DNA from: Methanobrevibacter sp.
Lineage (GTDB): Archaea > Methanobacteriota > Methanobacteria > Methanobacteriales > Methanobacteriaceae
NCBI RefSeq assembly: GCF_045220775.1
Contig: NZ_JBGUWC010000078.1
Location: 12,120-76,119 of the forward strand
DNA: 64,000 nucleotides
Reading direction: 5' to 3'
Shown here: positions 5,595 through 52,590 of the stretch, piece after piece
Layout: every line of letters starts with the position of its first letter
Position numbering within the stretch: position 1 is the first letter of the stretch
Notes under the pieces: model-generated
Told to the model about the DNA's origin: nothing
Databases searched by the model: none
What the model saw: the letters and a program-made list of their open reading frames with translations, nothing else
Position numbers and translations under genes: made by a program

Positions 5595-5603
5595 TGTACT
5601 TTC

Positions 5604-6785: not shown

Positions 6786-6786
6786 T

Positions 6787-7557: not shown

Positions 7558-7559
7558 AT

Positions 7560-8570
7560 CTATTCACCTAAATTGAGGTAATTTTCAAGACATTCATCCA
7601 ATCCCTTATCCAAATCAATGATTGGTTCCCAATCAGTTCTTGTTCTGATTTTTTCGGTTGATAATAATCTCCTTTCAGGATCAGATTCACGATAACCTTC
7701 AAACTTAATAACCGGTTCATCAATGCCCATTTTCTTAGCAATTAATTTAGTCAAATCTATGATTGATATCTCTTCATCGGTTGCAACATTATAGATTGTA
7801 CCATCCAGTGCTGAATCTGTTTTAGCCAATGCCAATACTGCACTGCAACTATCATAATTGTTTAAAAATGTCCTGCAGTTCTTTTTAGAATTTTCTAATA
7901 GTGTTACTTCACCATCATTGATAAAGCTGTTTATAATGTGAGGTATGATATGTTTTGGCAATTTTTCATTTTTACTGTAAACATTTGCGAAACGAATAGA
8001 ACATCCTTTAATTTTGCCGTTGTCTACTGCATCCTTCATGAAAAACTCAGTTAACAGTTTTCCGGTTGCATAACTTGTTCTTTGACTGTGTTCCGCATCA
8101 GCCATTGTGATAAAGTCTGATTCTTTAACTCCACCATCCTCATTCCATGAATTCATAGAGTAAATCTCTGAAGTGGAACAATTGATGTATTTTTCAGCCC
8201 CAACTTCAATAGCCTGACTTAAGAAATCATTCATGCTAACCACATTAGTTTCATAGGTTTCATAAACCTTATAAAAATGCTCTGTGTGAACTACTGCCGC
8301 ACAATTGATATATACAACTTCATCAAAGCAATCTTTAGATTCCAATACAAATGATTTGATTTTATTCATCTCTTCCTTGTTATTTAAGTCATATTCATAA
8401 AAATCAAATCTTTCATCATCCAAACAGTCTGCTACTGTATCAATTGAAGATGCATAAAAATTATCAAAGCCTATGATTTTTACTTCATCTTCCTCTTGGT
8501 TTAAAAGTTGTCTTACCAACTCGTTACCTGTCATGCCGGTAACACCACTAATTACATATAAAACTTTCAT
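7560..8570 (-). CDS. NAD-dependent epimerase/dehydratase (extended SDR)
   Basis: GVTGMTGNELV (G..G..G) near the N-terminus and a Y...K catalytic pair (SYATGKL). 336 aa. Confidence 0.85.
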   Translation of the reverse strand: MKVLYVISGVTGMTGNELVRQLLNQEEDEVKIIGFDNFYASSIDTVADCLDDERFDFYEYDLNNKEEMNKIKSFVLESKDCFDEVVYINCAAVVHTEHFYKVYETYETNVVSMNDFLSQAIEVGAEKYINCSTSEIYSMNSWNEDGGVKESDFITMADAEHSQRTSYATGKLLTEFFMKDAVDNGKIKGCSIRFANVYSKNEKLPKHIIPHIINSFINDGEVTLLENSKKNCRTFLNNYDSCSAVLALAKTDSALDGTIYNVATDEEISIIDLTKLIAKKMGIDEPVIKFEGYRESDPERRLLSTEKIRTRTDWEPIIDLDKGLDECLENYLNLGE

Positions 8571-16486: not shown

Positions 16487-17350
16487 TTATTTAACAATTC
16501 TAGCCAGTTTATCAACATATTTGACAACTTTCCTATTTTTAAATGCATTTAATTCTTTATTTAGCTTCTTGTTTTCTTTTTTAAGTTTAGAATTTTGTTT
16601 TTTAAGCATTCTTACCTCTTCATTTAAGTTATTGAATACATCAGCATCATGTTTTAACTTTTTACTGGATCCACCTTCAAACTCTTTAACTTTTCTGAAT
16701 TTCAATAGCAATATTGAAGGGCGTTCCTCCTTATTTTCAAAGTCATAAAATGTGGGGTTGTCCAGATTATCCCTAAATCCTGTCTTGTATATCACTTCAT
16801 AAACCCTCTCCTCAATGACCTCAAAGACATCCAAAAACCTATCCTTTAAATCCAAATCGATAGTTATCGGCTCCATTGGAGTTGGCTTGTGATTCGTATC
16901 GACGATTATGCCGCAGATTCCGCCAACCTTAAGGACACGCTTGATTTCAGAAACAGTTTCGTCCAAATCATCAACATGGTCAAGCGAATTGATAGAGAAG
17001 ACAAAGTCGAATGTTTCATCCTCAAAGGGCATGTCTTCGCTGTATCCTCGCACATAATGCATCTTGTGAAACAATGTCCCCCCGCCCAATTTGAAATAAT
17101 CGTTGACCAATGGGTCAAGGCCCACTCTTAAGGATGCCATGTCGGCCCATTCAAGGCTTCCCCTTGGACCGCATCCAATGTCCAATATTGATTTGTCCAT
17201 ATAATCCTCATAGGTTAAGTTAAAGTCATTGATGTAAAACTTTTCGTAAGGGGCTCCGCCGGAAATCTGTTTTAATGTTTTTTCATCCTTTACCCTTTTT
17301 GACCAGAACTTTAACTCATGCCTATGTTTAAAATCGTTTTCATCCTGCAT
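16487..17350 (-). CDS. class I SAM-dependent methyltransferase with C-terminal coiled-coil tail
   Basis: Motif I ILDIGCGPRG and post-motif DFVFSINSLDHV. The last ~50 aa are K/E/N/L heptad-like (LKKQNSKLKKENKKLNKELN). Confidence 0.75.
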   Translation of the reverse strand: MQDENDFKHRHELKFWSKRVKDEKTLKQISGGAPYEKFYINDFNLTYEDYMDKSILDIGCGPRGSLEWADMASLRVGLDPLVNDYFKLGGGTLFHKMHYVRGYSEDMPFEDETFDFVFSINSLDHVDDLDETVSEIKRVLKVGGICGIIVDTNHKPTPMEPITIDLDLKDRFLDVFEVIEERVYEVIYKTGFRDNLDNPTFYDFENKEERPSILLLKFRKVKEFEGGSSKKLKHDADVFNNLNEEVRMLKKQNSKLKKENKKLNKELNAFKNRKVVKYVDKLARIVK

Positions 17351-17483
17351 ATCATCACATAAACTAGTATTAATAATTACTATATTTTTTATTGGTATAT
17401 AGATTTAATGAAAATCAAAACAAATAATATAAACAACCAAAACATAAATATTTAACATTATAAATTAATGAAGGTAATATATC

Positions 17484-18248
17484 ATGTCAAAACCTGTCAT
17501 TGCAATTACAAGACCAAAGGATAGAGCGAAGAAAGCTTGTGATATCGTGGAAAAATTGGGTGGTGAGGCCGTCCTGGCACCGACACTTGATTTGAAACCT
17601 GTCAACACGCAATCCCTAAGGGAACTGGTTGAAAGAAAGGATGAACTCGATTGGATCATATTCACATCACCGACTACAATCGTTTCACTGAAACAATTCC
17701 ATCCTGAATTCTTAAAAAGCTTAAATTGTAAATTGGCCGTCATTGGAAACAAGACCGGCAAACTGGCTGAAAAACAAGGATTAACGGTTGATTTGATGCC
17801 TGAAGATTTCACAGCAGAAGGACTCATTGAAGAATTTAAAAAAAGAGGAGTTACCAATAAAACAATTGGAATTCCAAGAACCGCTTCTGCAAGGCCAGTC
17901 CTTCCCGAAGAGCTGGAAAAACTTGGAAATAAAGTTATATTGGCTGAAGCATATAAATCTCTTTTCCCGATGGATGAAAATGCGGTTGAAGAACTGATTT
18001 CAAAAATCGAAAATAAGGAAATTGATGCAATTACATTTACAAGCCCGCTGACTGTTGAAAACTTCTTTGAAATTGTAAAGGACAAAGAAAAAATAGCCAA
18101 ACTGCTTTCCGAAAACCTGTTGACCGTCTGCATTGGCCCTATTACTGCAAAGGTCTTGGACAAATATAATATTACCTACATTTACCCAGATACTTACACA
18201 GTTCCAGACATGATGGAATTATTATTCAATACACTAAACTCAAGATAG
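17484..18248 (+). CDS. hemD: uroporphyrinogen-III synthase
   Basis: Two-lobed HemD pattern: ITRPKDRA...LDWIIFTSPTTIV and IDAITFTSPLTVENFF. The long antisense ORF is rejected. Confidence 0.8.
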   Translation: MSKPVIAITRPKDRAKKACDIVEKLGGEAVLAPTLDLKPVNTQSLRELVERKDELDWIIFTSPTTIVSLKQFHPEFLKSLNCKLAVIGNKTGKLAEKQGLTVDLMPEDFTAEGLIEEFKKRGVTNKTIGIPRTASARPVLPEELEKLGNKVILAEAYKSLFPMDENAVEELISKIENKEIDAITFTSPLTVENFFEIVKDKEKIAKLLSENLLTVCIGPITAKVLDKYNITYIYPDTYTVPDMMELLFNTLNSR

Positions 18249-39177: not shown

Positions 39178-39486
39178 AATATCTCCTGAATTTGATATCT
39201 TAAAATCTTAAAATATCAATAGTTTATCAATTAATATTTAATTATGTTTATCATACATTATATAGTTTAACTGATGAAATTGAAATGTCTATAAAAAATA
39301 GAATTAAAATACCAAAAAAAATGAAAAAGGCCTAAAAATTGTTAAAACTATCCAATAAGAATTTAACCATATGTTTAAACAATATATTTAAATAATAATA
39401 TAACATATATTATATTAGAATAATTGTTAATTATTTATCATTATAAATTAACATGACAATTATAAAACCAATATGGAGAGAAATTT

Positions 39487-41583
39487 ATGATCGATCTCAA
39501 TAAGATGTTTAAACCTGAATCTGTGGCTGTTATTGGAGCATCCAATACACCAGGAAAAGTTGGACATATTATTGTTGATAACCTTATCAACGATGGCTTT
39601 GAAGGCGCAATATATCCAGTAAACCCTAAAGGCGGAGAGATTCTTGGTAAAAAAGCATATGCGAATATAAAAGACATACCTGAAAAAGTAGACTTGGCAA
39701 TAATTACCATCCCTGTTGCATTCGTAAATCCTACTGTAAAAGAATGCGGTGAAGCAGGCGTAGAAAACATGGTAGTCATTACCGCCGGATTTAAAGAAGT
39801 CGGCGAAGAAGGGGCTAAATTAGAAGCTGAACTAACAGCACTTGGTAAAGAATATGGAATAAACATTATTGGACCAAACAGTTTAGGAATCACCGATTCC
39901 CATACCCCGTTAAACGGATCATTTTCACAGATGATGCCACCAACAGGAAACATGGCATTCATTTCACAGAGTGGAGCTATGATGGTAGCTATCATCGATT
40001 GGAGCGTAACCTCCGGAATTGGATTCAGTAAAGTTATCAGTTTAGGAAACAAAGCCGGTGTAAGTGAAATCGAATTGCTTCAATACCTAGCTGAAGATGA
40101 TGAGACTAACGTAATCATCTGTTATTTAGAGTCAATTTCCGATGACGAGGACTTTGTAAGGACCATGAGAGAAACCGCACACAAAAAACCGATTATTGTC
40201 TTAAAATCCGGTTCAAGTTCCGCTGGAGCGGCCGCTGCATCCTCACACACAGGAGCGCTTGCAGGAAGTGACCTTGCATTCGATACCGCATTCAGGCAAT
40301 CCGGAATCATGCGTGTAGAAACAATGGCAGAATTATTTGACTTAGGTTTAGCATTCTCCAAAGCACCGCTTCCAAGAGGAGACAATGTAGCTATCATTAC
40401 CAACGCAGGTGGTGGAGGAGTACTTACCGTAGACGCAATGGAAAAAGTAGGATTGCAACTCGTACAATTCGATGAAGAAACTACTGCAAGATTAAAAGAA
40501 TGTGTTACTGAAGAAGGTAGTGCTAAAAACCCTATTGACGTATTGGGAGATGCACCAGTAAGCAGATACAAAGAATCCTTGGAAATCGTATTAAGTCAAG
40601 ATGAAGTTGACAGCCTAATCGTTATGGTTTGTCCTACCGCATCAGCTGACCCTGATGGAATTGCACAAGCAATTTTAGAGGAAAGAAAAGAATTTGACAA
40701 ACCTATCATTGTAGTCAACATGGGTGGACCTTCATTTGAAGCTGCAAACGAAGCTTTAAGAGAAAACGGTGTGCCAACATACGTATTCCCAGAAACTGCA
40801 GTAACTGCCCTTGAAGCAATGACTAGATATGCTCAATTAGAAAACAGAGTATACGACGATGTCGTTGATAAGGTGGATGACGTTGACAAAGATGCAGTAG
40901 CTGCAATATTCGAAAAGGTTAAAGCTGATGGAAGGGACACATTGCTTGGTAGTGAAGCATACGCAGTAGCTGAAGCATATGGAATTTCAGCAGCACCAAT
41001 CAAATTATCAACAAGCGCTGATGAAGCGGCTGCACTTGCAGAGGAAATGGAATTCCCTGTTGTGCTTAAGATTGCATCCGACAAAATATTGCACAAGTCA
41101 GATATCGGCGGTGTAAAAGTAGGAATAACTAACGCTGAAGAAGCAAAAGCAACCTATGAGGAAATCATCGCAAACGCCAAAGCAGCTCATCCTGACATTG
41201 TTCCTGACGGTGTGGAAGTGCAAAAGATGATGGATTCCGGTGAGGAAGTCATTGTCGGTATGATAAGAGACAAACAATTCGGACCTATGATTGCATTCGG
41301 TATGGGTGGAATCTACGTTAACCTTATTGAAGATGTGGAATTCAACCTCGCAAAAGGAATGAGCTCTCAGGAAATCGATGAACAAATCGAAAAGACCAAA
41401 GTATCCAAACTACTTGCAGGATACAGAGGAGAAGCACCTTGCGATGTTGAAGAAGTCAAAGAAGCTATCAAAAGAGTAGCCAGATTGACTTTAGACTTCC
41501 CAGAAATATCCGAGTTAGACATTAACCCAATCTTCGTTTACGAAGAAGGTTCAAGCGCACTCGACATTAAAATAAAATTATAA
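39487..41583 (+). CDS. acd: acetate--CoA ligase (ADP-forming), fused alpha/beta subunits
   Basis: FKPESVAVIGASNTPGKVGH CoA-binding start, GPNSLG, the phosphohistidine region SSHTGALAGS and a C-terminal ATP-grasp half. 698 aa. Confidence 0.9.
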   Translation: MIDLNKMFKPESVAVIGASNTPGKVGHIIVDNLINDGFEGAIYPVNPKGGEILGKKAYANIKDIPEKVDLAIITIPVAFVNPTVKECGEAGVENMVVITAGFKEVGEEGAKLEAELTALGKEYGINIIGPNSLGITDSHTPLNGSFSQMMPPTGNMAFISQSGAMMVAIIDWSVTSGIGFSKVISLGNKAGVSEIELLQYLAEDDETNVIICYLESISDDEDFVRTMRETAHKKPIIVLKSGSSSAGAAAASSHTGALAGSDLAFDTAFRQSGIMRVETMAELFDLGLAFSKAPLPRGDNVAIITNAGGGGVLTVDAMEKVGLQLVQFDEETTARLKECVTEEGSAKNPIDVLGDAPVSRYKESLEIVLSQDEVDSLIVMVCPTASADPDGIAQAILEERKEFDKPIIVVNMGGPSFEAANEALRENGVPTYVFPETAVTALEAMTRYAQLENRVYDDVVDKVDDVDKDAVAAIFEKVKADGRDTLLGSEAYAVAEAYGISAAPIKLSTSADEAAALAEEMEFPVVLKIASDKILHKSDIGGVKVGITNAEEAKATYEEIIANAKAAHPDIVPDGVEVQKMMDSGEEVIVGMIRDKQFGPMIAFGMGGIYVNLIEDVEFNLAKGMSSQEIDEQIEKTKVSKLLAGYRGEAPCDVEEVKEAIKRVARLTLDFPEISELDINPIFVYEEGSSALDIKIKL

Positions 41584-42305: not shown

Positions 42306-42330
42306 AAGCATAGTTGATTTAACTATGCTT
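42306..42330. terminator. perfect 10-bp-stem hairpin between convergent genes
   Basis: AAGCATAGTT (42306-42315) / AACTATGCTT (42321-42330) with loop gattt. The right arm overlaps the stop codon of the minus-strand SBP gene. Confidence 0.45.
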
Positions 42331-43294
42331 CCCAATATAACATTTGGTGTGGGATAGTTTGATTTAAAATTCCTAAATCCACTTCTAATTTTTGGAAAGA
42401 ATCCACATTAGCTTTGTAGTCATTATCTAAACCAGAGATGAATGGGAAACTTTCTAATGATTCAGCTTCCACAGCAGGGTCAGTGACAATGTCTTCAGGT
42501 AATAATTCAACTACTTTATCAGTAGTACCGTTTTCGATATTGTCATTGATGAAATTGGTTGCTTCTTCATGGATTGCAACAATTTCTTCAGCAGTGTCTT
42601 TGTGCTCTTTAATGAAGTCATTTGATGCTACAACAACACAACATGGGTGGCCAGGTAAGATTTCAGAGGAATCAGCTAGCTCGTTAATGTTATCACTATT
42701 TTCACCAATACTTACATAAGGCTGGAAAGTAATGGCTGCAGGAATATTATTGGTTTTTAAAGCATCATTAATTGATGGAACTTTCATTGCAGACTCATTA
42801 ATATCATCTAATGATAAATCATGCTGTTGTAAGTAGGCTGAAAGTAACACATGTTGAATTGAAGCTTCACCAGGAGTAGCAATAGTTTTTCCTTTTAATT
42901 GGTTAGCAAAGTAAATATGTGAATCTTCAGTTACAAGAATACCTGATCCTTCAGTTTGAGCAGCGGAAATAACTTTAACAGGTACGCCCGCAGAAATGGA
43001 TGATAATACAGGAGCAATTCCTACATAACCAACATCAACATCTCCACTAGCCATAGCAGTCATCAAGTCTCCACCATTGTTAAATTGGACAAGTTCAGTA
43101 GTAATGTTTTTATCAGCATACATGCCTTTAGCATCAGCGACAAATAAAGCTGCGTCGTGATCTGAAGGCAAGTAACCTATCTTTACAGTGTCGTCTCCTC
43201 CTCCTAAAAAGTCGAAAAGACCAGCACTGGCTGAACCCATTACTAAAAATGCAGCAAGTGCTAACACTAAAACAAATGTAATCTTTTTATTCAT
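42323..43294 (-). CDS. ABC-transporter substrate-binding protein, NMT1/THI5-SsuA/TauA family
   Basis: Signal/anchor MNKKITFVLVLALAAFLVMGSASA, then IGYLPSDHDAALFVA...VDVGYVGIAPV. A paralog of 43464-44399. Confidence 0.75.
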   Translation of the reverse strand: MNKKITFVLVLALAAFLVMGSASAGLFDFLGGGDDTVKIGYLPSDHDAALFVADAKGMYADKNITTELVQFNNGGDLMTAMASGDVDVGYVGIAPVLSSISAGVPVKVISAAQTEGSGILVTEDSHIYFANQLKGKTIATPGEASIQHVLLSAYLQQHDLSLDDINESAMKVPSINDALKTNNIPAAITFQPYVSIGENSDNINELADSSEILPGHPCCVVVASNDFIKEHKDTAEEIVAIHEEATNFINDNIENGTTDKVVELLPEDIVTDPAVEAESLESFPFISGLDNDYKANVDSFQKLEVDLGILNQTIPHQMLYWEA

Positions 43295-43372
43295 TTATAA
43301 TCACCAAATAATTAAGTTAACTTAATTACTAATTATAGTATTATGAATTAACTATAAATATATTACTTAAGT

Positions 43373-43387
43373 TAACAATTGTTATAT
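43373..43387. promoter_or_regulatory. operator-like palindrome TAACAATTGTTA + TAT (site A)
   Basis: Perfect 12-bp palindrome at 43373-43384, about 80 nt upstream of the SBP start codon. The same 13-mer ACAATTGTTATAT recurs at 45309 and 51891. Confidence 0.55.
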
Positions 43388-43463
43388 AGAATCCCTTGAT
43401 ATAGTATTAACTAATTGAGTATATAAACATTTTGTAAAAAAAAAATAAGATGGAGGCAGTTAA

Positions 43464-44399
43464 TTAACTACCTTCCCAAAAGATATCCTCTTCAGAAATA
43501 GGATTTTTCAAGACACCCAAATCAACTTCCAGGTTCATGAAGTCCATTACATCCTGTTTGTAACTGTCATCAAGTCCTGAAATGAACGGGAAACTGGAAA
43601 TAGCTACTTTTTCAACTTCAACATCGGAAACTATATCTGATGGAATCATTGAAGCTGCTTCATCAGGATTGCTGTTGATGAATTCTGTAGCGTTTTCATG
43701 AATTTCCAAAATGGTATTGGTTTCATTAGGATGTTCTTCCAGGAACTTATCTGATGCAACTACAACACAACATGGATGATTTGGCAAAATGTCCTGTGAA
43801 CCTGCAAGCACTGTAGCACCGTTTTTCTCAGCGATAGTGACATAAGGCTCAAAGGTTATCATTCCATCAATCTTATTTGTCTTGAGCGCATCATTCATTG
43901 AAGGGACTTTCATTGAAGATACTTTTAAATCATTTAAAGACATTCCATTCTGTTCCAAGTAATATTGAAGCAGCATGTATTGGATTGAAGCTTCACCAGG
44001 AGTTGCAATAGTTTTTCCTGCAAGGTCAGAAACTGAACTGATTCCTGAGTTTTTAGCAACGACCAATCCGCTTCCTTCAGTTTGAGCGGCGGAAATGACT
44101 TTAACAGGAACCCCTTTTTGAATAGATGCCAAAACAGGAGTGATACCTACATAACCGACATCAACATCTCCACTGGCCATGGCGGTCATCAGGTCACCAC
44201 CATTGTTAAACTGAACCAATTTGGTGTTGATGCCGTTAGAGGCAAATTGTCCTTGAGCATCTGCAACGAATAGCGCTGCATCGTGATCGGAAGGCAGATA
44301 TCCAATAGTTACGGTTTCGCCACTGCTTGTTAGGAAGAATGCTCCAACAGCAACAATGGCTATGATTGCAATAATGATTGCGATAATTTTATTATCCAT
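43464..44399 (-). CDS. ABC-transporter substrate-binding protein, NMT1/THI5-SsuA/TauA family (paralog)
   Basis: N-terminal TM anchor, then IGYLPSDHDAALFVADAQG...VDVGYVGITPV. Long identical peptide stretches are shared with the neighbouring paralog. Confidence 0.75.
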   Translation of the reverse strand: MDNKIIAIIIAIIAIVAVGAFFLTSSGETVTIGYLPSDHDAALFVADAQGQFASNGINTKLVQFNNGGDLMTAMASGDVDVGYVGITPVLASIQKGVPVKVISAAQTEGSGLVVAKNSGISSVSDLAGKTIATPGEASIQYMLLQYYLEQNGMSLNDLKVSSMKVPSMNDALKTNKIDGMITFEPYVTIAEKNGATVLAGSQDILPNHPCCVVVASDKFLEEHPNETNTILEIHENATEFINSNPDEAASMIPSDIVSDVEVEKVAISSFPFISGLDDSYKQDVMDFMNLEVDLGVLKNPISEEDIFWEGS

Positions 44400-44449
44400 T
44401 TTATCACCTATTATTAAATATACAGAAAAAATTATTAAAGGTTTTGATT

Positions 44450-45063
44450 ATGGTAGCTCAAAAAATTGACCAGTGCATGAAACCTCACGGCGAAGAGGGT
44501 ATTGAAACCATCAAAAGAATGAATGAAGACCATAAAAACATCACTGAATTCGCATTTGGCTGCATCAATATAGGAAAAGACTATAGAATACTTGATATTG
44601 GCTGGGCGGTGGAGTCAACATTGAAAAATTCCTTAAAGCGACTGAAAATAATGTGGATGGACTGGATTATTCGGAAGTGTCCATCAGCGAATCAACCAAA
44701 AGAAATCAGAATGCTGTTAAAGAGGGAAGATGTACACTGATCCAAGCAGACGTTACGGATATGCCCATTGAAGATGAAACATATGAACTCGTCAGCGCAT
44801 TTTCAACAATATTCTTCTGGCCGGATTTAATTGAAACCTTTAAGGAGGTCCTGAGAATCGTCAAACCGAACGGGCAGTTCATGATAGCTCAGGGAACCGA
44901 CGGTACAAATCCGGAAGACAAAGAATGGATCAATCCTGATGAGGGAATAAACGTTTATACAGGAGATGAACTGGAAAGATATCTGTTGGATGCTGGTTTT
45001 AAAAGTGTAGAAATCTTTAAAAAGGAAGGAACTTATTTATTAGTGGTTATCGCTGAAAAATAG
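44450..45063 (+). pseudogene. class I SAM-dependent methyltransferase disrupted by a 1-nt deletion inside motif I
   Basis: Frame A reads ...YRILDIGWAVEST. Frame B continues GGGVNIEKFLKATENNVDGLDYSEVS... Inserting one base after GGC TG (about 44604) restores ILDIGCGGGV. Confidence 0.75.
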
Positions 45064-45064
45064 C

Positions 45065-45265
45065 TTAACCACCATAAATAATCTGAACTAAATTAATTTC
45101 ATCGCCATCATTGATTACACTGTCTTCGATTGTCAACTCGCCATTCTGCTTTGCAACGATGGTTTGGGCAGACAATTCCAATTCATCCAATAAATTCCTT
45201 ATTGTAAAATTCTCTTTTAAATCTCTTGTTTCATTTATGTCTTTAAATTTTAACTTATATTCCAT
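45065..45265 (-). CDS. thiS: ThiS/MoaD-family ubiquitin-like sulfur-carrier protein (C-terminal GG)
   Basis: 66 aa ending DGDEINLVQIIYGG, which aligns with the ThiS tail (DGD.I.L.Q.I.GG). Confidence 0.75.
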   Translation of the reverse strand: MEYKLKFKDINETRDLKENFTIRNLLDELELSAQTIVAKQNGELTIEDSVINDGDEINLVQIIYGG

Positions 45266-45306
45266 AATTTCACATCATCTTAAACTTCAATATTTCAGCA
45301 AAATAT

Positions 45307-45321
45307 TAACAATTGTTATAT
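45307..45321. promoter_or_regulatory. operator-like palindrome TAACAATTGTTA + TAT (site B)
   Basis: Perfect 12-bp palindrome at 45307-45318, about 45 nt upstream of the ThiS-like start. Confidence 0.55.
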
Positions 45322-45456
45322 TATTTTATTACAATATAAGTTTTTCTAAATAATATCAAATATAATATAAAACTGTTCAAATACGAAATTACAAAAAATT
45401 CCAATTTCAAAACATTTATATATAAATATTACACAATTATAATTAATGGAAAAAAA

Positions 45457-45471
45457 TAACTATTGTTATAT
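45457..45471. promoter_or_regulatory. operator-like palindrome, one mismatch (TAACTATTGTTA + TAT) (site C)
   Basis: 19-nt identity with site B apart from one base (TAAC[A/T]ATTGTTATATTAT). Lies in the same divergent intergenic region, about 175 nt upstream of ATG 45647. Confidence 0.45.
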
Positions 45472-45603
45472 TATAAAATTTCGAAGGGATTTTACATTTT
45501 TCCATTAAGCTCGGGTAAAAATCTTTCAAATAAATTGTTTTATAATCTCTAAAAATATATATTAAAGTAGATTATGAAAAGACTCCTTAAAATGAACTGT
45601 GAA

Positions 45604-45624
45604 AAGGCATCAACTTGATGCCTT
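45604..45624 (+). promoter_or_regulatory. 21-bp perfect palindrome / leader hairpin upstream of the LarE-like gene
   Basis: AAGGCATCAA c TTGATGCCTT. It is the only GC-containing element in a ~380-bp AT-rich spacer and ends 12 nt before the AGAGGA ribosome-binding site. Confidence 0.5.
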
Positions 45625-45646
45625 AAATTATTTAAAAGAGGATAAC

Positions 45647-46657
45647 ATGAGCTTAGAAAATAAGATAAGTATTGTTGAAGATATCTTAAAAGACAAAAAA
45701 GTGGCCATTGGCTTTTCAGGCGGCGCTGATTCTACATTAATAGCATATTTATCTTCAAAAGTTGCAGCTGACACATTAGCAATTACAATCGATAACCATT
45801 TGCTTCCGACAGGTTTTGTTGAAAATACGAAAAGAATTGCAGAATCCTTTGGAATAAAACATGAAATAGTGAACATTGACTTTTATGAAGATGAATACTT
45901 CCTAAGCAACGATTCAAAAAGATGTTATACCTGCAGAAACCTGATGTATTCAAAAATCAAAGAGGTTGCAGGTAAAAATGGTTTTGATTTTATTTGTGAT
46001 GGAAATAACATCAGCGATTTGGTAAACGACAGACCTGGAATACTGATAACTTACAAAAATGACTTTAAAACTCCATTCATTGAAGCGAAACTAACTTCAA
46101 AGGAAATACACAAATACTTAAATGACAATGGCATTCCATATTCCCGATCAACAACATGTCTTGCAACAAGGCTTCCGACAAATACTCAAACGACTCATGA
46201 GAAAATCAAGAGGATAAGCTATTGCGAAGATTATATTCTAGCAAACACCAATTGCGAAATTGTCAAAGTTAGAGATTTAGGGGAACTTGGTATTATTGAA
46301 GTGGACAACATAAATGAATTATTGAGTAAAGATAAATTTATTAACATCAACGATGAATTAAAAAGCAAAGGATTCAAAAAGATTGCACTAAATTTATCAC
46401 AAATCGATGATGATGAATACATTGTCATTGAGTATAATGGCGGTTCATTTTCATACCCTCTTCCGTTTACAATAAACATTGAAAATACAAAAAATCAAAT
46501 CAAAGATGCCGTTTTCAGTGATGATGAAAGAATTGAAGTTGAAAATATAGAAATATTCGAAAATGGATTGATTAAAGGTCATGATTTTGAAACTTATGAA
46601 GATGCGCTAGATGCATTTATGGGTGTATTGCCAAAACTAAGGAGAAATATTAGGTGA
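45647..46657 (+). CDS. PP-loop ATP pyrophosphatase, LarE/TIGR00268-like sulfur transferase with C-terminal extension
   Basis: KVAIGFSGGADSTLIAYL PP-loop. Cys triad CYTC...TTC as in cluster-binding LarE-type enzymes. ATG 45647 behind AGAGGA is preferred to the GTG 45599 of the track. Confidence 0.65.
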   Translation: MSLENKISIVEDILKDKKVAIGFSGGADSTLIAYLSSKVAADTLAITIDNHLLPTGFVENTKRIAESFGIKHEIVNIDFYEDEYFLSNDSKRCYTCRNLMYSKIKEVAGKNGFDFICDGNNISDLVNDRPGILITYKNDFKTPFIEAKLTSKEIHKYLNDNGIPYSRSTTCLATRLPTNTQTTHEKIKRISYCEDYILANTNCEIVKVRDLGELGIIEVDNINELLSKDKFININDELKSKGFKKIALNLSQIDDDEYIVIEYNGGSFSYPLPFTINIENTKNQIKDAVFSDDERIEVENIEIFENGLIKGHDFETYEDALDAFMGVLPKLRRNIR

Positions 46658-46661
46658 AAAA

Positions 46662-47417
46662 ATGCCAACAAGATACATAGGTGATGGATACTGGGAAATT
46701 GCTTCCCGTCAAATGAGTATAGTAACTAGAAGCGAACAGGAAAGATTTAAAGATGCTAAAATCACAGTTATCGGCTGTGGCGGAATCGGTGGTGAAACCA
46801 TAGAAATGCTTGCAAGAATGGGAATTGGAGAACTTGTCCTTGTTGATAAAGATGCATTTGACCTATCAAATCTAAACAGACAGACTTTAGCCACAATTAA
46901 TGATTTAGGGCTTGATAAAAGTGCAGTAGCAAAAGAAAAGGTCAGATTAATTAACCCTTACGTTAAAGTAACTACATTCAATGAACATGTGGATCAGACA
47001 AACATCGATAAAGTAATCGGAGATTCAAATATCGTCATTGACGCATTAGATAATGTTTTGACAAGAGTAATCGTTTCAAGAACTGCAAAAGAAAAAGGAA
47101 TCCCATACATTCACGGAGCAATCCATGGAACATTAGGACAGATTACAGTATTCCTGCCAAACAGCGACAAGACATATGAAGAGATGTTTAATCTTCCATC
47201 ATTAGGTAAAGAATTAACAGAAGAAACAATTGAAGCTTTAAAAGGAGTGACATCCGGAGTTCCACCAGTAATTGGACCTACTCCAAACCTGATTGGATGT
47301 CTTGAAGCATTTGAAGCTTATAAAATAATAACTGGAGTCGGCAAAGTCACCGTTGCTCCAAAAATATTGACATTTGATTTATTGGATTTAAGTTCATTTT
47401 CATTAGATGAACTATAA
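46662..47417 (+). CDS. ThiF/MoeB/HesA-family E1-like adenylyltransferase
   Basis: ITVIGCGGIGGETIEMLARMGIGELVLVDKDAFDLSNLNRQ. There is no rhodanese domain and no CxxC zinc pairs. Confidence 0.85.
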   Translation: MPTRYIGDGYWEIASRQMSIVTRSEQERFKDAKITVIGCGGIGGETIEMLARMGIGELVLVDKDAFDLSNLNRQTLATINDLGLDKSAVAKEKVRLINPYVKVTTFNEHVDQTNIDKVIGDSNIVIDALDNVLTRVIVSRTAKEKGIPYIHGAIHGTLGQITVFLPNSDKTYEEMFNLPSLGKELTEETIEALKGVTSGVPPVIGPTPNLIGCLEAFEAYKIITGVGKVTVAPKILTFDLLDLSSFSLDEL

Positions 47418-47422
47418 ATCAT

Positions 47423-48253
47423 CTATTTTTCCAAATTTACGCGTTCGGGAGCTGTGAAAACAGTGAATCTATTATCCCGAACAAAACCAACCATCGTAAT
47501 GTTGCCTGCACGAGCCACATCAATACCGGATGATGCCGGTGCCGCATTTGAAATAATGATTGGAATTCCAACCCTGATTACCTTAATCAGCATGTCCGCA
47601 GGCATTCTTCCACTATAAGATATATAACATTTTGAGAAATCATATCCCTCTTTTGAAGCCGCTCCAATTACCTTATCAACTGCAACATGACGGCTTACGT
47701 CCTCACGAATGATAATCTTATCTTCATATTTCAATTGGGCGACATGGACCCCACCTGTTTTCTGCCAGATTTTAGCCTCATCGGTCAAATGTTGAATGTC
47801 CTTGATAATTTGAGTTGCATCAATCCTTAAATCTGATGTGTTTGGTTCGATTGTTTTTAGCTCGGATCTGATTCCACCGGCATTATCGGAATTTACCCCC
47901 TGATATTCTAGCAGTCTGCACACACAGGCATGCTCGCAATTGCCCTTTCTCTCCTGAACAATACCTTCCTGTTCCAAATCCTCTTCAGGGTCATGAGTAA
48001 GCTTTGTAGAGACCAGAACATTGGTTCCATCAAGTTCAATGGAGTTGATGTCAGAATAGTCTTTAATCAACCCTTCCCCTAAACAATATCCTATAGCAAA
48101 GTCCTTTAAATCCTTAGGATATGTTGAAAACTTACGGGGAGGCAAATAATCAATGAACAAATAAGTGTATTCATCATCAACGCTGTTTTCCTTAATTGTT
48201 TCATAGCCTCCATCTTTCCATTGAATAACATCAGTTTGTCTTATGAACTCCAT
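47423..48253 (-). CDS. fdhD: FdhD-family sulfurtransferase (formate dehydrogenase accessory protein)
   Basis: TGGVHVAQL, EDVSRHVAVDKVIGA and SGRMPADMLIKV..GIPIIISNAAPASSGI...MVGFVR blocks. The Cys loop reads NCEHACVC. Confidence 0.85.
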   Translation of the reverse strand: MEFIRQTDVIQWKDGGYETIKENSVDDEYTYLFIDYLPPRKFSTYPKDLKDFAIGYCLGEGLIKDYSDINSIELDGTNVLVSTKLTHDPEEDLEQEGIVQERKGNCEHACVCRLLEYQGVNSDNAGGIRSELKTIEPNTSDLRIDATQIIKDIQHLTDEAKIWQKTGGVHVAQLKYEDKIIIREDVSRHVAVDKVIGAASKEGYDFSKCYISYSGRMPADMLIKVIRVGIPIIISNAAPASSGIDVARAGNITMVGFVRDNRFTVFTAPERVNLEK

Positions 48254-48270
48254 AAAATCACCTTAACATA

Positions 48271-49659
48271 CTATTTGCCGACCAATGCAATGTTTAGATA
48301 TTTCTTCAATTCATCACACTCTTCCGGATCGGCATTCTTCAGACTATTAATGCTTGTTTGCTTGTTATTTTTTGACAATTCAACATGAGTGTTAATGTAT
48401 CCATGTTCCTTAATCAGTTTCAGAAGCCTTTTTCCATATGTCAAATCAGGATTTGAAATACGATTAAGCATTAGACTTAGAGTGCGGTCTTCATCTATGC
48501 CCAGCACTTCACACATGCCATGCATTTCATTGATGATATCTGCTGCCCAGCTTTTAAGGGTTACTTCCTCGCCATCCCTAAGCAATCTCATTGATTCGAC
48601 ATAAGCAGATTCAGCAGTTGCCTCTTCATTATATTTGGCTTCCTTTTGCCAATCCTCATAATCGGACTCATCCTTAATGAACATATATATCAAAAACAGA
48701 TGCAGGAATTTCATGTCATGCATTACAAGTCCACATTTATAAAATGGATTGATATCCAAAGTCCTTATCTCAATATATTCAATTCCATCATTTTCTAAAG
48801 AATTCAACAAGTCTTGAGGGTTCTTTGGCTTTAATCTAATCTGAGTGTATAGCTCTTTTGCCTCGGACAAATCCCCCTCATCGATGAATTTGTTAATGTC
48901 ACTAACAAATTCCTTCACTGAGTCGTAAGATGGATATAGCTCCTTTAAGTTCTTATATCCGCATGAAGCGTTTCTAAATGATGGACCTTTTGTTGAGTAG
49001 AAACTTCCGTAATCGTCCTGCTCATCCATCAGATGCAAACAATCATTAGAGAATGTCTTATGTGAACCTATTGAACAGCCGGTCAGATATATAATCAGCC
49101 AGCAGTATCTTAGGTAGTTTCTAGCTATCTTCAAATAAACGTTATCCTTAAACTCCTTAAAAGTTAGATCAGAGCCTTCCATGCCATATAATTTGTTTAA
49201 TAAATCATCTGAAAATGAAAAATTAAAGTGAACTCCTGAAATCATCTGCTTTTTGACACCGTATTTTTTTGCCAGATCTTCACGGTATTTTTGAGAAGAT
49301 ATTCCCTCTTCGGAATATTGGGCAATTGGAATCTGGTCCCAATAAGGCAAAATACATGGAATTGATTGAAACCACAGATATTCATCTTCAGGCAGTGATG
49401 CATTGACAATGTCAGATAACAATGAAAAATTGTCAAATGCCTTGTCAATCGAATCGAAAGTCGGTGTGATTATTTCGATTTGGCTTTCTGAAAAATCCGT
49501 GGTTACAACAGGATTTGTTAGCTTATCACCAAATACCTCCGGATGAGGGGTTAATGATAGCTTTCCATCACCTTTTGCCCTTAAGCTTTCCCATTCTATC
49601 CCAAACGAACCAGCCAAGATTTCATCTACAGATAACTTTGATACGTTTAATAAATTCAT
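48271..49659 (-). CDS. gshA: glutamate--cysteine ligase, bacterial GshA type
   Basis: FGIEWESLRAKGDGKLSLTPHPEVFGDKLTNPVVTTDFSESQIEIITP parallels the E. coli GshA N-terminal block. ATG 49659 behind GGAGG is preferred to the TTG at 49671. Confidence 0.8.
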   Translation of the reverse strand: MNLLNVSKLSVDEILAGSFGIEWESLRAKGDGKLSLTPHPEVFGDKLTNPVVTTDFSESQIEIITPTFDSIDKAFDNFSLLSDIVNASLPEDEYLWFQSIPCILPYWDQIPIAQYSEEGISSQKYREDLAKKYGVKKQMISGVHFNFSFSDDLLNKLYGMEGSDLTFKEFKDNVYLKIARNYLRYCWLIIYLTGCSIGSHKTFSNDCLHLMDEQDDYGSFYSTKGPSFRNASCGYKNLKELYPSYDSVKEFVSDINKFIDEGDLSEAKELYTQIRLKPKNPQDLLNSLENDGIEYIEIRTLDINPFYKCGLVMHDMKFLHLFLIYMFIKDESDYEDWQKEAKYNEEATAESAYVESMRLLRDGEEVTLKSWAADIINEMHGMCEVLGIDEDRTLSLMLNRISNPDLTYGKRLLKLIKEHGYINTHVELSKNNKQTSINSLKNADPEECDELKKYLNIALVGK

Positions 49660-49682
49660 TTCTCCTCCCAAAAATTATGAAT

Positions 49683-51074
49683 CTAATCTAATTTACCATA
49701 ATCTCTAATTAATTCTTCCAATTCAGCACCGTTATGCATTGATGTGATAATGTCCTTTCCAGGATTAGTGTGCTGTTTAATGCGCTCATATAACGGATTC
49801 AAGAAAATCTCTTCACCAATGCCTCTTTCTTTTAGTCCTCTGTCTGCTAAATCAACAACATCCTTTGTTAATTTACATAAATCATTTTTATCAATAAATG
49901 CTGGAAGTTCATCCTGTATCAGCAGTTTTCTGAGTTCCCCTGCAGTGTACCCCTTGTGATATATTACATTATCATTATTAATTAACTCTTCAAGCTCGTC
50001 CAATTTCTCCTTAAGGCCTAAATGGAATGCTGCAACAGACATTGAGTCCCTAATCGGCTGAGTGCAGACGCTTCTGAATTCCACTGTTCCCCTGAATGTC
50101 AGATTAATGAATTTGAACGGCCTTAAATATTTGATGTCCTTGATGCATGGCTTTATTTCAATTTCCCTGTACTCTCCATTGCTGTATATTTCACCGCAAA
50201 CATAATCCTTTTTAAAGTATTCGAGCAGATTCATTGACGGGAAGTTGATGTATGCCCCATCACGCATTACGCAATAGATATTTAAGGATTCCAGATATGC
50301 CTGCAAATCATCGAGATTTTTAAAGTCAACATCATACATACCAATGTTGTGAGGATTTACTCCATGTGTTGAATATTCCCATAAAGCATCCCTAAAGCAG
50401 GTTACATGCTTGTTTTCATCCACCAGAACTGAATTTGAGAACAGCAATGCCTTTATAGGTTCGATTTTTGAGAATACATTGATTGTCTTTACCAGCTCAT
50501 CCTTATATACATCCAGCTGAACCTGTGAAGCGGATGAAAACATTCCATATTCCGGATAATCATGAAAATGCATAGGAACATTCCTGTAGTTCTTAAAAGA
50601 TTTCAGATGATGATAAAGCATCAGATATCTCTCGGACGGAATCGGCTGATTCTTGTTATATTTTCTATATGGATTTATGCCCATTCCGGTCAATGTGTGG
50701 TTAAATTCCTCAAAGCATTCCTTTGTAAATGCATAATAATCGCAAAAACGGTCGTATATGGAAAACAGATCCTTTTCCCTGCCCATCGCAAATTCGATAT
50801 TATTGTATGAACAGTCATAACAGAATATGTCATCATTATTGTTGTTTTTAAGAGAAAAGACATTTCCATCATAGTCAATGCCATCTTCCTTAAAATCTGA
50901 GTACTGTTTTTGAAACTTGTCAGTGACCTTATGAACAACACCAAAGTCCACTGCCGTCTTATCAAGATTAATAATGGGAATTTCAATCTCAATACCAACA
51001 AAGTTCTTCTTCTGTTCCGTTGGCTTTATGAATTCATCATATAATTTATTCCTCACCGTTTCTTCACTAATCAT
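49683..51074 (-). CDS. glutamate-cysteine-ligase-superfamily carboxylate-amine ligase (GCS2/EgtA-like), substrate unknown
   Basis: FVGIEIEIPI, NIEFA, SSASQVQLDV and GTVEFRS follow the GCL/GS fold pattern. ATG 51074 overlaps the upstream stop by 8 nt. Confidence 0.6.
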   Translation of the reverse strand: MISEETVRNKLYDEFIKPTEQKKNFVGIEIEIPIINLDKTAVDFGVVHKVTDKFQKQYSDFKEDGIDYDGNVFSLKNNNNDDIFCYDCSYNNIEFAMGREKDLFSIYDRFCDYYAFTKECFEEFNHTLTGMGINPYRKYNKNQPIPSERYLMLYHHLKSFKNYRNVPMHFHDYPEYGMFSSASQVQLDVYKDELVKTINVFSKIEPIKALLFSNSVLVDENKHVTCFRDALWEYSTHGVNPHNIGMYDVDFKNLDDLQAYLESLNIYCVMRDGAYINFPSMNLLEYFKKDYVCGEIYSNGEYREIEIKPCIKDIKYLRPFKFINLTFRGTVEFRSVCTQPIRDSMSVAAFHLGLKEKLDELEELINNDNVIYHKGYTAGELRKLLIQDELPAFIDKNDLCKLTKDVVDLADRGLKERGIGEEIFLNPLYERIKQHTNPGKDIITSMHNGAELEELIRDYGKLD

Positions 51075-51864
51075 TATTATCAACCTGATTTATTGATTTT
51101 AAAAAATCTTCAATTGCTTTTTCATGTTCTTCAGTCAATATAAACTCGTTTTGATGCTCTTCACTTTCAAAAATGATATTTCCATCAATCAGACCGAATA
51201 GCTTATTTAATTCTACAGGTTTCCAACCTTCATCATCCGTTAGTGGAGTTGAAGCAACCAAAAATCCTTCATCGTTTTTCAAGTAATAAAGCGAATCCCT
51301 CATATTCGAATGGATATAAGTCAAGTCGCCATCGTAAATCATTAGATTAACCTTATTATTTTTAGATAAGTCAACAATAATGTCATTTAATAGATTAAAC
51401 CTCTCTTTTATGGTGGACAGGCCACCTTTATTTCTCTCAAACTCGTTAACCTTATCTATGATGTATAAAAGTATTCGCTCAGAATCAGTATCCCCATTTT
51501 CCTTATCCTTGTATTCATCGAGTTTAGGATAATCGAATATGGTTCCGTTGTGTATCAACATCCATGATCTGTTATTGTCATCAGCTTCTGTGAAAGGGTG
51601 GCAATTGGGAGATATGATTTCACCCACAGTAGCCAATCTGATGTGAGCGAACACGTTTTTTCCAACAACAGGATGGGATAATATATCTTTCAAGTGTTGG
51701 CTACATGTTGCTTTTACAGGCTCTTTATCTATAACAAATTCATCGGATTGCATAGTGGCCAATCCCCATCCGTGCGGATGCTCTTCTGAGTGATTGTAAA
51801 AACATTCAAGACACTTGTTAATTTGTTTTGGCGTATTTGAATTAAAACAAAAAATTTCACACAT
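51067..51864 (-). CDS. class II (Ntn) glutamine amidotransferase-like protein, YafJ/EgtC type
   Basis: Begins MCEIF (catalytic Cys2) with HPHGWGLA downstream. GGAGGG ribosome-binding site 9 nt upstream. Confidence 0.8.
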   Translation of the reverse strand: MCEIFCFNSNTPKQINKCLECFYNHSEEHPHGWGLATMQSDEFVIDKEPVKATCSQHLKDILSHPVVGKNVFAHIRLATVGEIISPNCHPFTEADDNNRSWMLIHNGTIFDYPKLDEYKDKENGDTDSERILLYIIDKVNEFERNKGGLSTIKERFNLLNDIIVDLSKNNKVNLMIYDGDLTYIHSNMRDSLYYLKNDEGFLVASTPLTDDEGWKPVELNKLFGLIDGNIIFESEEHQNEFILTEEHEKAIEDFLKSINQVDNND

Positions 51865-51887
51865 ACATTACCCTCCTATCATTTAAT

Positions 51888-51909
51888 ATCACAATTGTTA
51901 TATTGTGAT
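51888..51909. promoter_or_regulatory. operator-like element (site D): TCACAATTGTTA nested in ATCACAAT-N6-ATTGTGAT
   Basis: 13-mer ACAATTGTTATAT at 51891-51903. 8-bp inverted arms at 51888-51895 and 51902-51909. The element lies between a minus-strand TTTATATAA box (51932-51940) and the RBS of the amidotransferase gene. Confidence 0.55.
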
Positions 51910-52035
51910 AAGTATTGTTTTATAACTCATGTTATATAAACATTAACATGACCATATTTAAATTCATGACAATTTTAATATAGGAATAGGGAAAAAGAAC
52001 TTATATAATAATTAAATTCATTAATATTGATTGCT

Positions 52036-52590
52036 ATGTTCACTTATCCCAAAATACTAAAACGAAAGGATTTGAAAAGAATTTCCAAATATCCCTGTGA
52101 TGATGAAATAAAGGATGCCTACATCAAATACCTGTCAAACTACTCATTTAAGGAGTTTGTAAAATATTGTGAAGACAATGATGATAAGGATATGGAAGAC
52201 CTAATCTTTAGCTTCACAGATTTGCAATTGGAAAGATTTGAACCTAATTCACTGATTTGGGTTTCACATGCGATGATTAACTTCCTGATTTATTTTGAAG
52301 TGAATCTGGATTATGATGAGTATTATGATGCATATGCAACAGCCATTCAATTTACAGTATTGTCCTGCGCCATGAAAATGACATTGAACAAGATTCCTTT
52401 TGAGGAAGTGCCGTTTCCCGAACATTCAAAAATCTGCTTTGAAAAACTATTTGACAAAAACCCTGATTTTAAATTCAATTTGGAAAACGATTGTAATCTG
52501 GCTTATAACTCATTCAATACTAATTTTGACTTTACAAGCGAAGAGTTTTACTTGAAAATGAAAGCGCATTTTGACGAATGCAACTATTAA
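52036..52590 (+). CDS. hypothetical protein (184 aa)
   Basis: Intact ORF divergent from the amidotransferase operon. ATG 52036 is preferred to the TTG at 52027. No motif recognised. Confidence 0.4.
   Translation: MFTYPKILKRKDLKRISKYPCDDEIKDAYIKYLSNYSFKEFVKYCEDNDDKDMEDLIFSFTDLQLERFEPNSLIWVSHAMINFLIYFEVNLDYDEYYDAYATAIQFTVLSCAMKMTLNKIPFEEVPFPEHSKICFEKLFDKNPDFKFNLENDCNLAYNSFNTNFDFTSEEFYLKMKAHFDECNY

Follow-up and report, generated by a model that had tools for sequence, protein, structure and literature searches.

Several archaeal repressors act from operators that overlap the core promoter, among them NrpR (GGAA-N6-TTCC, in Methanococcus), MDR1, LrpA, Phr and TrmB/TrmBL1 (TATCAC-N5-GTGATA). In bacteria, sulfur and cysteine metabolism is governed by the LysR-type activators CysB, Cbl and CmbR, the Rrf2-type repressor CymR and the TetR-type repressor McbR. 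Methanogens have an unusually high demand for sulfur, for iron-sulfur (Fe-S) proteins, coenzymes M and B and the thioglycine of MCR, and we know of no sulfur-responsive transcription factor, operator or other defined sulfur regulon in these organisms. Here we analysed a 64-kb stretch of Methanobrevibacter DNA (the window) in which a short palindromic motif recurs in four promoter regions. The motif is one form of an 18-bp dyad, ATATAAC-N4-GTTATAT, which is very likely to be a transcription-factor operator defining a sulfur regulon, and a small helix-turn-helix (HTH) protein is proposed as a tentative candidate for its regulator.

The dyad is like the archaeal repressor operators in being short, in lying at or just downstream of the TATA box or start site, in occurring as single and as tandem sites, and in that one factor would serve scattered operons with a single metabolic theme. 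It is unlike those of NrpR, MDR1, LrpA, Phr and TrmB in its sequence and its sulfur theme, and the candidate protein is not a member of any of these families. The NrpR pattern GGAA-N6-TTCC does not fit the sites, and the Thermococcales glycolytic motif (TGM) of the TrmB family has a counterpart at site d only (TATCAC-N12-GTGATA), with a spacer of N12 instead of N5 and a second arm that is not conserved. The ModE operator of Methanosarcina acetivorans, RTTATGT-N8-RCATAAY (PMC12327845), is likewise a palindromic methanogen operator with GTTAT/ATAAC, bound by a repressor that has multiple sites in divergent intergenic regions (PMC12327845), and some gene themes are common to both systems (FdhD, MoeB/ThiF-like, NifX-like and nitrogenase-like proteins). 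However, the half-sites differ in order and spacing, a Mop domain is missing from the candidate protein, and the targets here are cysK, cysE, cysS, metY, thi4, thiS and tusA, while those of ModE are molybdate transporters. At up to two mismatches the ModE operator has nine matches in the window against 6.6 expected, a single one of which touches a site region (51931-51952). As in the bacterial sulfur regulons, which are often autoregulated, one factor would control cysteine synthesis, binding proteins for sulfonate or sulfur uptake, and thiol metabolism, and the HTH segment ITQPAVSQ of the candidate resembles the LysR HTH signature. Unlike the bacterial regulators, the candidate would work at archaeal promoters; it has about 130 amino acids (aa) and shows no LysR effector domain, Rrf2 fold signature or TetR fold, and the operator geometry is T-N10-A, not the T-N11-A of the LysR box. 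A full-text literature search returned no paper on the motif, the HTH protein or a methanogen sulfur regulon, its coverage being incomplete, so that a prior description is possible. We take this to be a new regulon with a predicted operator, which would work like other archaeal operator-repressor pairs, and with a candidate regulator from a family that is uncharacterised.

The dyad and its conservation in Methanobrevibacter

Coordinates given without a locus label are positions in the window. The 13-mer ACAATTGTTATAT occurs exactly at 43375-43387, 45309-45321 and 51891-51903, three copies against 0.02 expected from dinucleotide shuffles of the window, a number reached in 0 of 100 shuffles. With up to one mismatch there are six matches (0.36 expected), including 45459-45471 (ACTATTGTTATAT) and an unrelated coding match at 8301. 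The 12-bp palindrome TAACAATTGTTA has two perfect copies, at 43373 and 45307, and two copies with one mismatch, at 45457 and 51889. A first-pass annotation of this DNA had reported these copies, and all its coordinates are correct; its hand estimate of about 0.03 chance copies agrees with the shuffles, and its gene identities agree with Pfam and NCBIfam. As it stated, the four motif copies are all intergenic, and all lie in the promoter regions of the genes that it named. It took the palindrome as the unit of the motif; the palindrome is present, but the conserved unit is wider. In Methanobrevibacter the consensus is longer than 12 bp and asymmetric, ATATAACAATTGTTA when read towards the gene, and this 15-mer is one form of the 18-bp dyad. 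With up to two mismatches it has seven matches in the window against 0.8 expected, confined to the four loci, and at that stringency it is absent from the other ~55 kb. This absence argues against the alternative, raised in the same annotation, that the motif is a generic TFB recognition element (BRE)/TATA feature. The similarity between sites in the window reaches only 25-27 nt, which speaks against both a duplicated promoter and a repeat element. In total the window has six sites in the four promoter regions, listed here without strand:

43370-43387, site a: AGTTAACAATTGTTATAT; the minus strand reads ATATAACAATTGTTA towards the substrate-binding protein (SBP) gene; exact 15-mer
45304-45321, site b: TATTAACAATTGTTATAT; the minus strand reads ATATAACAATTGTTA towards the ThiS gene; exact 15-mer
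45454-45471, site c: AAATAACTATTGTTATAT; inverted with respect to the other sites relative to its gene; 13/14 to the dyad
51886-51903, site d2 (promoter-proximal): ATATCACAATTGTTATAT; 13/14; ends 12 nt before the GGAGGG ribosome-binding site
51909-51923, site d1 (degenerate): the minus strand reads ATAAAACAATACTTA; three mismatches; 20 bp from d2
51920-51937, site d0: TTATAACTCATGTTATAT; 13/14; overlaps the TATA box

The genes of the four units are:

42323-43294, minus strand: SBP1, SsuA/NMT1-like secreted substrate-binding protein, unit a (Pfam NMT1_2 4.9e-32; NCBIfam SsuA_fam 1.3e-43, under the curated cut-off)
45065-45265, minus strand: ThiS-like sulfur-carrier protein, unit b (Pfam ThiS 5.5e-08)
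45647-46657, plus strand: LarE-like PP-loop ATP-dependent sulfur transferase, unit c (NCBIfam LarE TIGR00268 5.6e-49, above cut-off)
46662-47417, plus strand: ThiF/MoeB-type adenylyltransferase, in the unit of LarE (Pfam ThiF 1.4e-59)
51067-51864, minus strand: class-II glutamine amidotransferase (EgtC-like), first gene of unit d (Pfam GATase_4 1.8e-30; weak match to EgtC, below cut-off)
49683-51083, minus strand: distant glutamate-cysteine-ligase-like (GCL-like) protein (NCBIfam TIGR01436 8.9e-10, weak and far below cut-off; no family in a Pfam scan)
48271-49671, minus strand: GshA-type glutamate-cysteine ligase, like the N-terminal half of GshF (Pfam Glu_cys_ligase 1.1e-90)
47423-48253, minus strand: FdhD sulfurtransferase, last gene of unit d here, 17 nt from gshA (NCBIfam fdhD_narQ 3.6e-58, above cut-off)

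The start of LarE was revised from GTG 45599 to ATG 45647 because homology to its orthologues begins at residues 15-17 of the GTG open reading frame (ORF).

The window was compared with 133 other loci from related genomes and metagenome contigs (labelled L001 and so on). Its best protein matches are 93% identical proteins from Methanobrevibacter metagenome-assembled genomes (MAGs), and an M. thaueri MAG protein is 85% identical. L001 and L002 are MAG loci found by a genome scan with LarE (LarE 76-77% identical), L003-L009 and L011 were obtained via amidotransferase homologues of 77-88% identity, and L016, L031 and L112 via a metagenome motif scan. In 11 related Methanobrevibacter loci the proteins are 70-95% identical and the gene order is rearranged. 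L001 has six copies of the motif and L002 five, against 0.2-0.3 expected, and in L003-L009, L011, L016, L031 and L112 five units (SBP1, GMC/ThiS, LarE, FdhD and the amidotransferase operon) account for all copies at up to one mismatch, each copy being upstream of one of them. The motif precedes the amidotransferase operon in 12/12 loci, mostly as two or three sites, SBP1 in 7/7, ThiS or the pair GMC oxidoreductase-ThiS in 8/8, LarE-ThiF in 6/7, and FdhD in all six loci where this gene has an upstream gap of its own (L001, L002, L005, L007, L011 and L031). In L003 and L004 the amidotransferase operon stands among unrelated genes (RtcB, PNP, NifX-like) and has retained its tandem sites. The genes next to these units never carry the motif, namely those for the second binding protein, the methyltransferase, DUF447 and the adhesin-like proteins, and purA. 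Thus, phylogenetic footprinting supports the proposal of the first-pass annotation that one operator links the SBP, ThiS, LarE/ThiF and amidotransferase-GCL-GshA-FdhD genes: the motif stays upstream of the orthologues although their order is rearranged and the flanks have diverged.

Site by site, counterparts of site a lie upstream of the SBP1 orthologue in L001, L005, L007, L009, L011 and L016, and those of site b upstream of ThiS or GMC-oxidoreductase-ThiS in L001, L002, L005, L007, L009, L011 and L112, while the variant and orientation of site c are identical in L001, L002, L007, L011 and L112. The proximal site d2 is kept in 12/12 amidotransferase promoters; a good site is found at the position of the degenerate d1 in L001, L002, L003, L007, L009, L011, L016 and L031, and the counterpart of d0 in L011 and L031 is a perfect 18-bp dyad, ATATAACATAAGTTATAT. 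The first-pass annotation had described at site d a nested inverted repeat, ATCACAAT-N6-ATTGTGAT, which is present in the window but in 0/133 other loci; L001 and L002 have ATTGCAAT or ATTATGAT in place of the right arm. Judged by this comparison, the repeat is a spacer between neighbouring sites and no element by itself, and site d is a predicted array of three sites.

For an alignment, 37 distinct sites were taken from the window and from eight related loci, and each was placed in its best-fitting orientation. The core reads A-T-A-T-A-A-C-A-A-T-T/a-G-T-T-A, its TATAAC positions being essentially invariant; conservation is 78-100% across the 15 core positions and at least 89% at 13 of these, and the flanks are nearly random A/T over eight bases on each side. 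In the Methanobrevibacter clade the ATATAAC half is invariant and the opposite half is reduced to GTTA in most sites. The orientation towards the gene is fixed at every promoter class except LarE, which keeps the inverse (TAACTATTGTTATAT, with a central T).

Weaker look-alikes in the window lie at 39333, 39398, 39418 and 10858. The near-match at 39418-39429, which the first-pass annotation had singled out as the closest other intergenic match, does exist, but neither it nor the one at 39333 is conserved in relatives, and both were rejected as sites. The element at 39398-39415 (ATATAACATATATTATAT, 13/14 to the dyad) lies upstream of an ADP-forming acyl-CoA ligase gene (39487-41583). Its ATATAAC half and a nearby AATTGTTAAT are kept in L001 and L005, the right half-site is not, and the element could be a weak site, a half site or simply a conserved promoter.

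The gene content of the regulon is fluid, as judged from these loci. A GMC-family flavin adenine dinucleotide (FAD) oxidoreductase, absent from the window, precedes ThiS under the motif in most relatives (L001 8311-9666, L002, L007, L011). L001 and L002 lack gshA, and L010 lacks the second GCL-like gene.

Extension to Methanobacterium and a candidate regulator

A scan of metagenome contigs for exact matches to ATATAACAATTGTTA returned 120 loci, about 110 of which are chance matches and three Methanobrevibacter regulon loci. In the other recovered contigs the 15-mer is one of several copies of the dyad ATATAAC-N4-GTTATAT, with AATT, TATA, GATC or AATC at the centre, placed before cysK-cysE, a divergent cysS/O-acetylhomoserine sulfhydrylase pair and tusA-dsrE-cysteine desulfurase. 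The Methanobacterium loci have 10, 5, 6 and 5 sites of at least 12/14 against 0.1-0.3 expected, all of them intergenic with respect to called genes save one borderline match. Their targets are cysK, cysS/metY, thi4, thiS, SBP, NifX-like, nitrogenase-like, tusA-dsrE-cysteine desulfurase and HTH genes. M. formicicum and a closed Methanobacterium genome each carry a sulfur island that encodes an SsuA/NMT1-like binding protein, ThiS, NifX-like proteins and nitrogenase-like NifD/K/H, together with CysK, CysE, the HTH protein, CysS, MetY, MetX, cysteine desulfurase, NifU, MOSC, Thi4 and ThiI; the M. formicicum island includes a GMC oxidoreductase as well (L132 1-1149). These 20 kb of the closed genome hold 10 dyads scoring 12/14 or more (0.3 expected), all between called genes, with two perfect dyads before cysK and a pair before thi4. 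The gene families of the window thus recur here beside cysteine genes under the same dyad, and the predicted regulon reaches well past the genes of the window, to those for cysteine, methionine and thiazole synthesis and for sulfur relay. The dyad is perfect over 18 bp in L133, L046, L097, L044, L011 and L031, and tandem sites are spaced 14 bp (with ATAT in common) or 20 bp.

The resulting target list is coherent for sulfur, with ThiS, ThiF, LarE-like proteins, FdhD, TusA/DsrE/cysteine desulfurase, CysK/CysE/CysS, MetY and Thi4, to which SsuA-like SBPs and gamma-glutamylcysteine ligases are added, and it suggests the acquisition and distribution of reduced sulfur as the common theme. TfuA uses the ThiS thiocarboxylate, and FdhD sulfurates the molybdo- or tungstopterin cofactor. 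By its predicted functions, the combination of ThiS, ThiF and a PP-loop enzyme suggests a sulfur relay of the thiocarboxylate type. In methanogens, ycaO-tfuA, which installs the MCR thioglycine, lies near thiF and other sulfur genes (PMC5589413). GshA homologues have been noted in Methanobrevibacter and Methanosphaera, their thiol product not being known (PMC7278568). Bacterial nitrogenase-like enzymes release sulfur from organosulfur compounds (PMC13474568), and by analogy such enzymes would fit the SsuA-like binding proteins.

Two contigs carry further arrangements of this kind. In L133 the sulfur dyad lies upstream (3678, 6814) of a nitrogenase-like NifD/NifK/NifH set (3834-7729), which may by analogy be an organosulfur-cleaving enzyme rather than a nitrogenase or an F430 enzyme. 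L131, a methanogen contig (1-2899), encodes YcaO (1634-2899) and TfuA (993-1634), followed by an exact motif at 890 and a LarE-like PP-loop gene 45% identical to the LarE of the window, an arrangement that connects both the motif and LarE-like enzymes with the machinery for the MCR thioglycine.

Pfam and NCBIfam scans of the block genes and the small neighbouring ORFs gave no candidate regulator, in agreement with the first-pass annotation, which had seen no DNA-binding protein gene in the block and had expected the cognate regulator to be encoded elsewhere. Two of the contigs recovered by the motif scan encode a 130-aa HTH protein. In Methanobacterium, the HTH gene lies directly downstream of cysK-cysE (L046, L097, L132 and L133), surrounded by genes with the motif, and encodes a protein of 125-135 aa (P0296/P0327/P0401 family) with an N-terminal HTH and a helical C-terminal half. 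Its N-terminal 60 residues are almost invariant and contain the HTH (Pfam HTH_3, E 5e-5; segment DITQPAVSQYISDKRG), and C5, C89, C92, C102, H105, C115 and C118 are invariant. A dyad lies beside the TATA box 85 nt upstream of its start codon in L133 (the closed genome) and, as a perfect copy, 77 nt upstream in L046. Such an own-promoter motif is found in two of the four loci, L132 and L097 having the site only at cysK or farther upstream. The best 120 of 575 homologues of the protein are all from Methanobacterium. No related structure was found in PDB, either by sequence (best a LysR HTH, E 0.17, not significant) or by fold with the AlphaFold2 (AF2) model, whose predicted local distance difference test (pLDDT) score of 74 is moderate (best Foldseek E 0.57). 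From location and sequence, we tentatively propose this XRE-type, Cys-rich protein as the regulator of the motif, a proposal that is nearly balanced for Methanobacterium and more doubtful for Methanobrevibacter; its Cys/His C-terminal domain is a possible Fe-S, metal or persulfide sensor.

Promoter geometry and the mode of regulation

In archaea, transcription starts about 25 bp downstream of the TATA box. The boxes assigned in the window are:

43420-43427, minus strand: TATA box of SBP1, TTTATATA, 32 bp upstream of site a
43352-43359, minus strand: second TATA-like box, ATTTATAG, downstream of site a
45333-45340, minus strand: TATA-like box, TTATATTG, 11 bp upstream of site b
45415-45422, plus strand: TATA box of the LarE-ThiF unit, TTTATATA, 34 bp upstream of site c; conserved in L001, L002 and L011
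51932-51940, minus strand: TATA box of the amidotransferase operon, TTTATATAA; position conserved in orthologous promoters

At the SBP1 and LarE promoters the TTTATATA box is 32-35 bp upstream of the site, which would then cover about +8 to +25; both TATA-like boxes of SBP1 are conserved in six orthologous promoters. The TATA box is 9-12 bp upstream of the site at the GMC/ThiS and amidotransferase promoters, a TTWAWATT box being kept 10-12 bp upstream in seven orthologous ThiS/GMC promoters. The amidotransferase promoters have the order TATA, 9 bp, site, 5 bp, site, 12-13 bp and ribosome-binding site, and at the FdhD promoters and d0 the site overlaps the TATA box. Most sites either overlap the TATA box or fall in the stretch from there to about +25 of the predicted start, and the predicted operator therefore probably acts by repression. 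One dimeric DNA-binding factor would co-regulate genes for sulfur acquisition, trafficking and thiol synthesis in Methanobacteriaceae, the bound protein excluding TBP/TFB or RNA polymerase, and a change in a sulfur-related signal would release the genes; judged from gene content, sulfur status is somewhat favoured as this signal. The site spacings of 14 and 20 bp would suggest cooperative arrays, and the 125-135-aa XRE/LysR-like HTH protein would be the most likely regulator, itself autoregulated. Going further, the HTH protein could be the master sulfur regulator of Methanobacteriaceae, sensing sulfide, persulfide or Fe-S through its seven Cys/His residues and repressing the whole regulon, which we hold to be conceivable but somewhat doubtful. 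Such a regulon would join cysteine, methionine and thiazole synthesis to organosulfur uptake (SsuA-like proteins and nitrogenase-like reductases), and it would include the ThiS-ThiF-LarE relay, with supply to YcaO-TfuA for the MCR thioglycine, as well as FdhD and the gamma-glutamylcysteine pathway in rumen and gut Methanobrevibacter.

Other explanations can be set against an operator for a repressor. Some archaeal regulators activate from upstream and repress from downstream positions, and the factor bound at the same site could be an activator or a dual regulator that recruits TBP/TFB when placed upstream of BRE/TATA. The SBP1 promoter would suit this, having in 6/6 genomes a conserved ATTTATA box 15-20 bp downstream of the site, which would place the site just upstream of the core promoter, and some Methanobacterium sites lie far upstream of the start codon (L133 12160 and 12316; L097 6387). 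However, an activator is hardly workable from the positions at the amidotransferase, GMC/ThiS, FdhD, LarE and HTH genes, where the sites overlap the TATA box or are found between this box and the ribosome-binding site, and SBP1 also has the conserved TATA box 32-35 bp upstream; we consider this reading unlikely. A specialised core-promoter element, in which ATATAAC is a variant TATA box plus downstream element used by an alternative TBP/TFB for one class of promoters, seems very improbable. The invariant ATATAA(C) does resemble a TATA box, its orientation relative to the gene is mostly fixed in Methanobrevibacter, and at FdhD it sits at the place expected of one (in L005, 13-27 nt before the start codon without a Shine-Dalgarno sequence). 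A core-promoter element is nevertheless difficult to reconcile with a dyad that is perfect over 18 bp in many Methanobacterium sites, with tandem arrays at 14 or 20 bp, with the inversion at LarE, with distances to the start codon of 12 to more than 170 nt, and with the separate canonical TTTATATA box that is usually nearby.

An action at the RNA level, through a 5'-leader hairpin or protein-binding site governing mRNA stability or translation, would be compatible with the motif lying probably just inside the transcript at SBP1, LarE and d2, and with the long LarE leader, which has other conserved and possibly structured blocks. The RNA would differ at LarE, though, where the motif is inverted; the sites at FdhD, d0 and the HTH gene overlap or precede the TATA box and so would not be transcribed from that promoter, and the hairpin would consist of a 4-nt AAUU loop on an A/U-rich stem of 4-7 bp. 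This explanation is highly improbable. Known RNA families were rejected, Rfam 15 giving no match at gathering score in the 64 kb and nothing below E = 1.6 in 43200-52100. Finally, the intergenic DNA is very A/T-rich, weaker look-alikes exist in the window, and the same 15-mer occurs by chance in many unrelated metagenome contigs, so that chance, or remnants of a duplicated promoter or mobile repeat, has to be considered. The comparative sequence data contradict this reading, which we regard as scarcely credible: shuffle controls, conservation before orthologues in a second genus and the lack of extended similarity around the sites all stand against it.

Several observations weigh against a repressor operator of this regulon, or against parts of that reading. 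The TATA boxes and start sites were assigned by eye, and if the second conserved TATA-like box of SBP1 were the functional one, the site would be upstream of it, as for an activator. Related loci share ancestry, and the counts of conserved sites are not independent events. The more distant amidotransferase-gshA locus L010 (64% identity) has no motif, which limits the membership of the amidotransferase operon in the regulon to one clade. Perfect ATATAAC-N4-GTTATAT dyads also occur beside bacterial TetR-family genes (L130 253-284, L128 3013, L070 8294); these are an unrelated operator with the same half-sites, and they imply that the word alone is not diagnostic. As for the candidate regulator, co-location and apparent autoregulation are its sole link to the motif, M. 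formicicum has no site within 320 nt before the HTH gene, and tblastn revealed no orthologue in the window or in ~250 kb of Methanobrevibacter DNA, much of it from the same region. A search with the conserved core of the protein and a scan of viral contigs gave no candidate either.

Neighbouring features and significance

In 6/7 genomes the SBP1 site is preceded, at a distance of 1-4 nt, by a conserved box, (A/G)GGGATTC, which reads GGGGTTC in L011, and in the window, L011 and L007 the LarE site is followed 13 nt further on by TTCGAAGGGATT. By their sequence and position these boxes may indicate the start site or be bound by a second factor. An inverted repeat, ATGGAAAAA (45446-45454) and TTTTTCCAT (45495-45503), brackets site c and begins at the predicted LarE start site. 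L011 and L007 share this repeat, and L001 and L002 have a shorter form, GGAAA...TTTCC. The LarE leader from site c to the start codon (45472-45646) is about 175 nt long and contains the conserved blocks AGCTCGGGTAAAA and ACTCCTTAA (45582-45590), as well as a hairpin, GGCATC-N5-GATGCC (45606-45622), just before the ribosome-binding site, which reads GAGCATC-N3/6-GATGCTC in relatives. Counterparts of this leader exist in L001 (about 9847-10006), L002 and L007 and are absent in L005 and L011. Its ACTCCTT could pair with the Shine-Dalgarno region, and the leader as a whole has no Rfam match. From these features, the leader may provide a second, RNA-level control of LarE-ThiF.

Further features of the window are:

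43389-43396, minus strand: conserved box by site a, AGGGATTC
43464-44399: second SsuA/NMT1-like binding protein
44444-45063, plus strand: S-adenosylmethionine (SAM)-dependent methyltransferase, between the second binding protein and ThiS, in two overlapping frames of 98 and 136 aa
52027-52590, plus strand: conserved hypothetical protein of 187 aa, divergent from site d, with no Pfam family and no HTH

The frame break of the methyltransferase falls in the SAM-binding motif, an intact 204-aa gene being present in L001, L002, L005, L009 and L016, and the split gene is either a pseudogene or a sequencing error. In L001 the orthologue of the 187-aa protein (17261-17815) lies away from any site, and this protein is probably outside the regulon.

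With a defined operator, members of the regulon can be predicted, and poorly understood genes are grouped with classical cysteine genes and would thereby be assigned to sulfur metabolism. These are the genes for LarE-like proteins, the GMC oxidoreductase, the second GCL-like ligase, the EgtC-like amidotransferase, lone SsuA-like binding proteins and FdhD. The candidate regulator is testable and has a possible new sensor domain. Altogether, the predicted regulon would offer a handle on the thiol and sulfur physiology of the dominant methane producers of the rumen and the human gut, at which methane mitigation is aimed.

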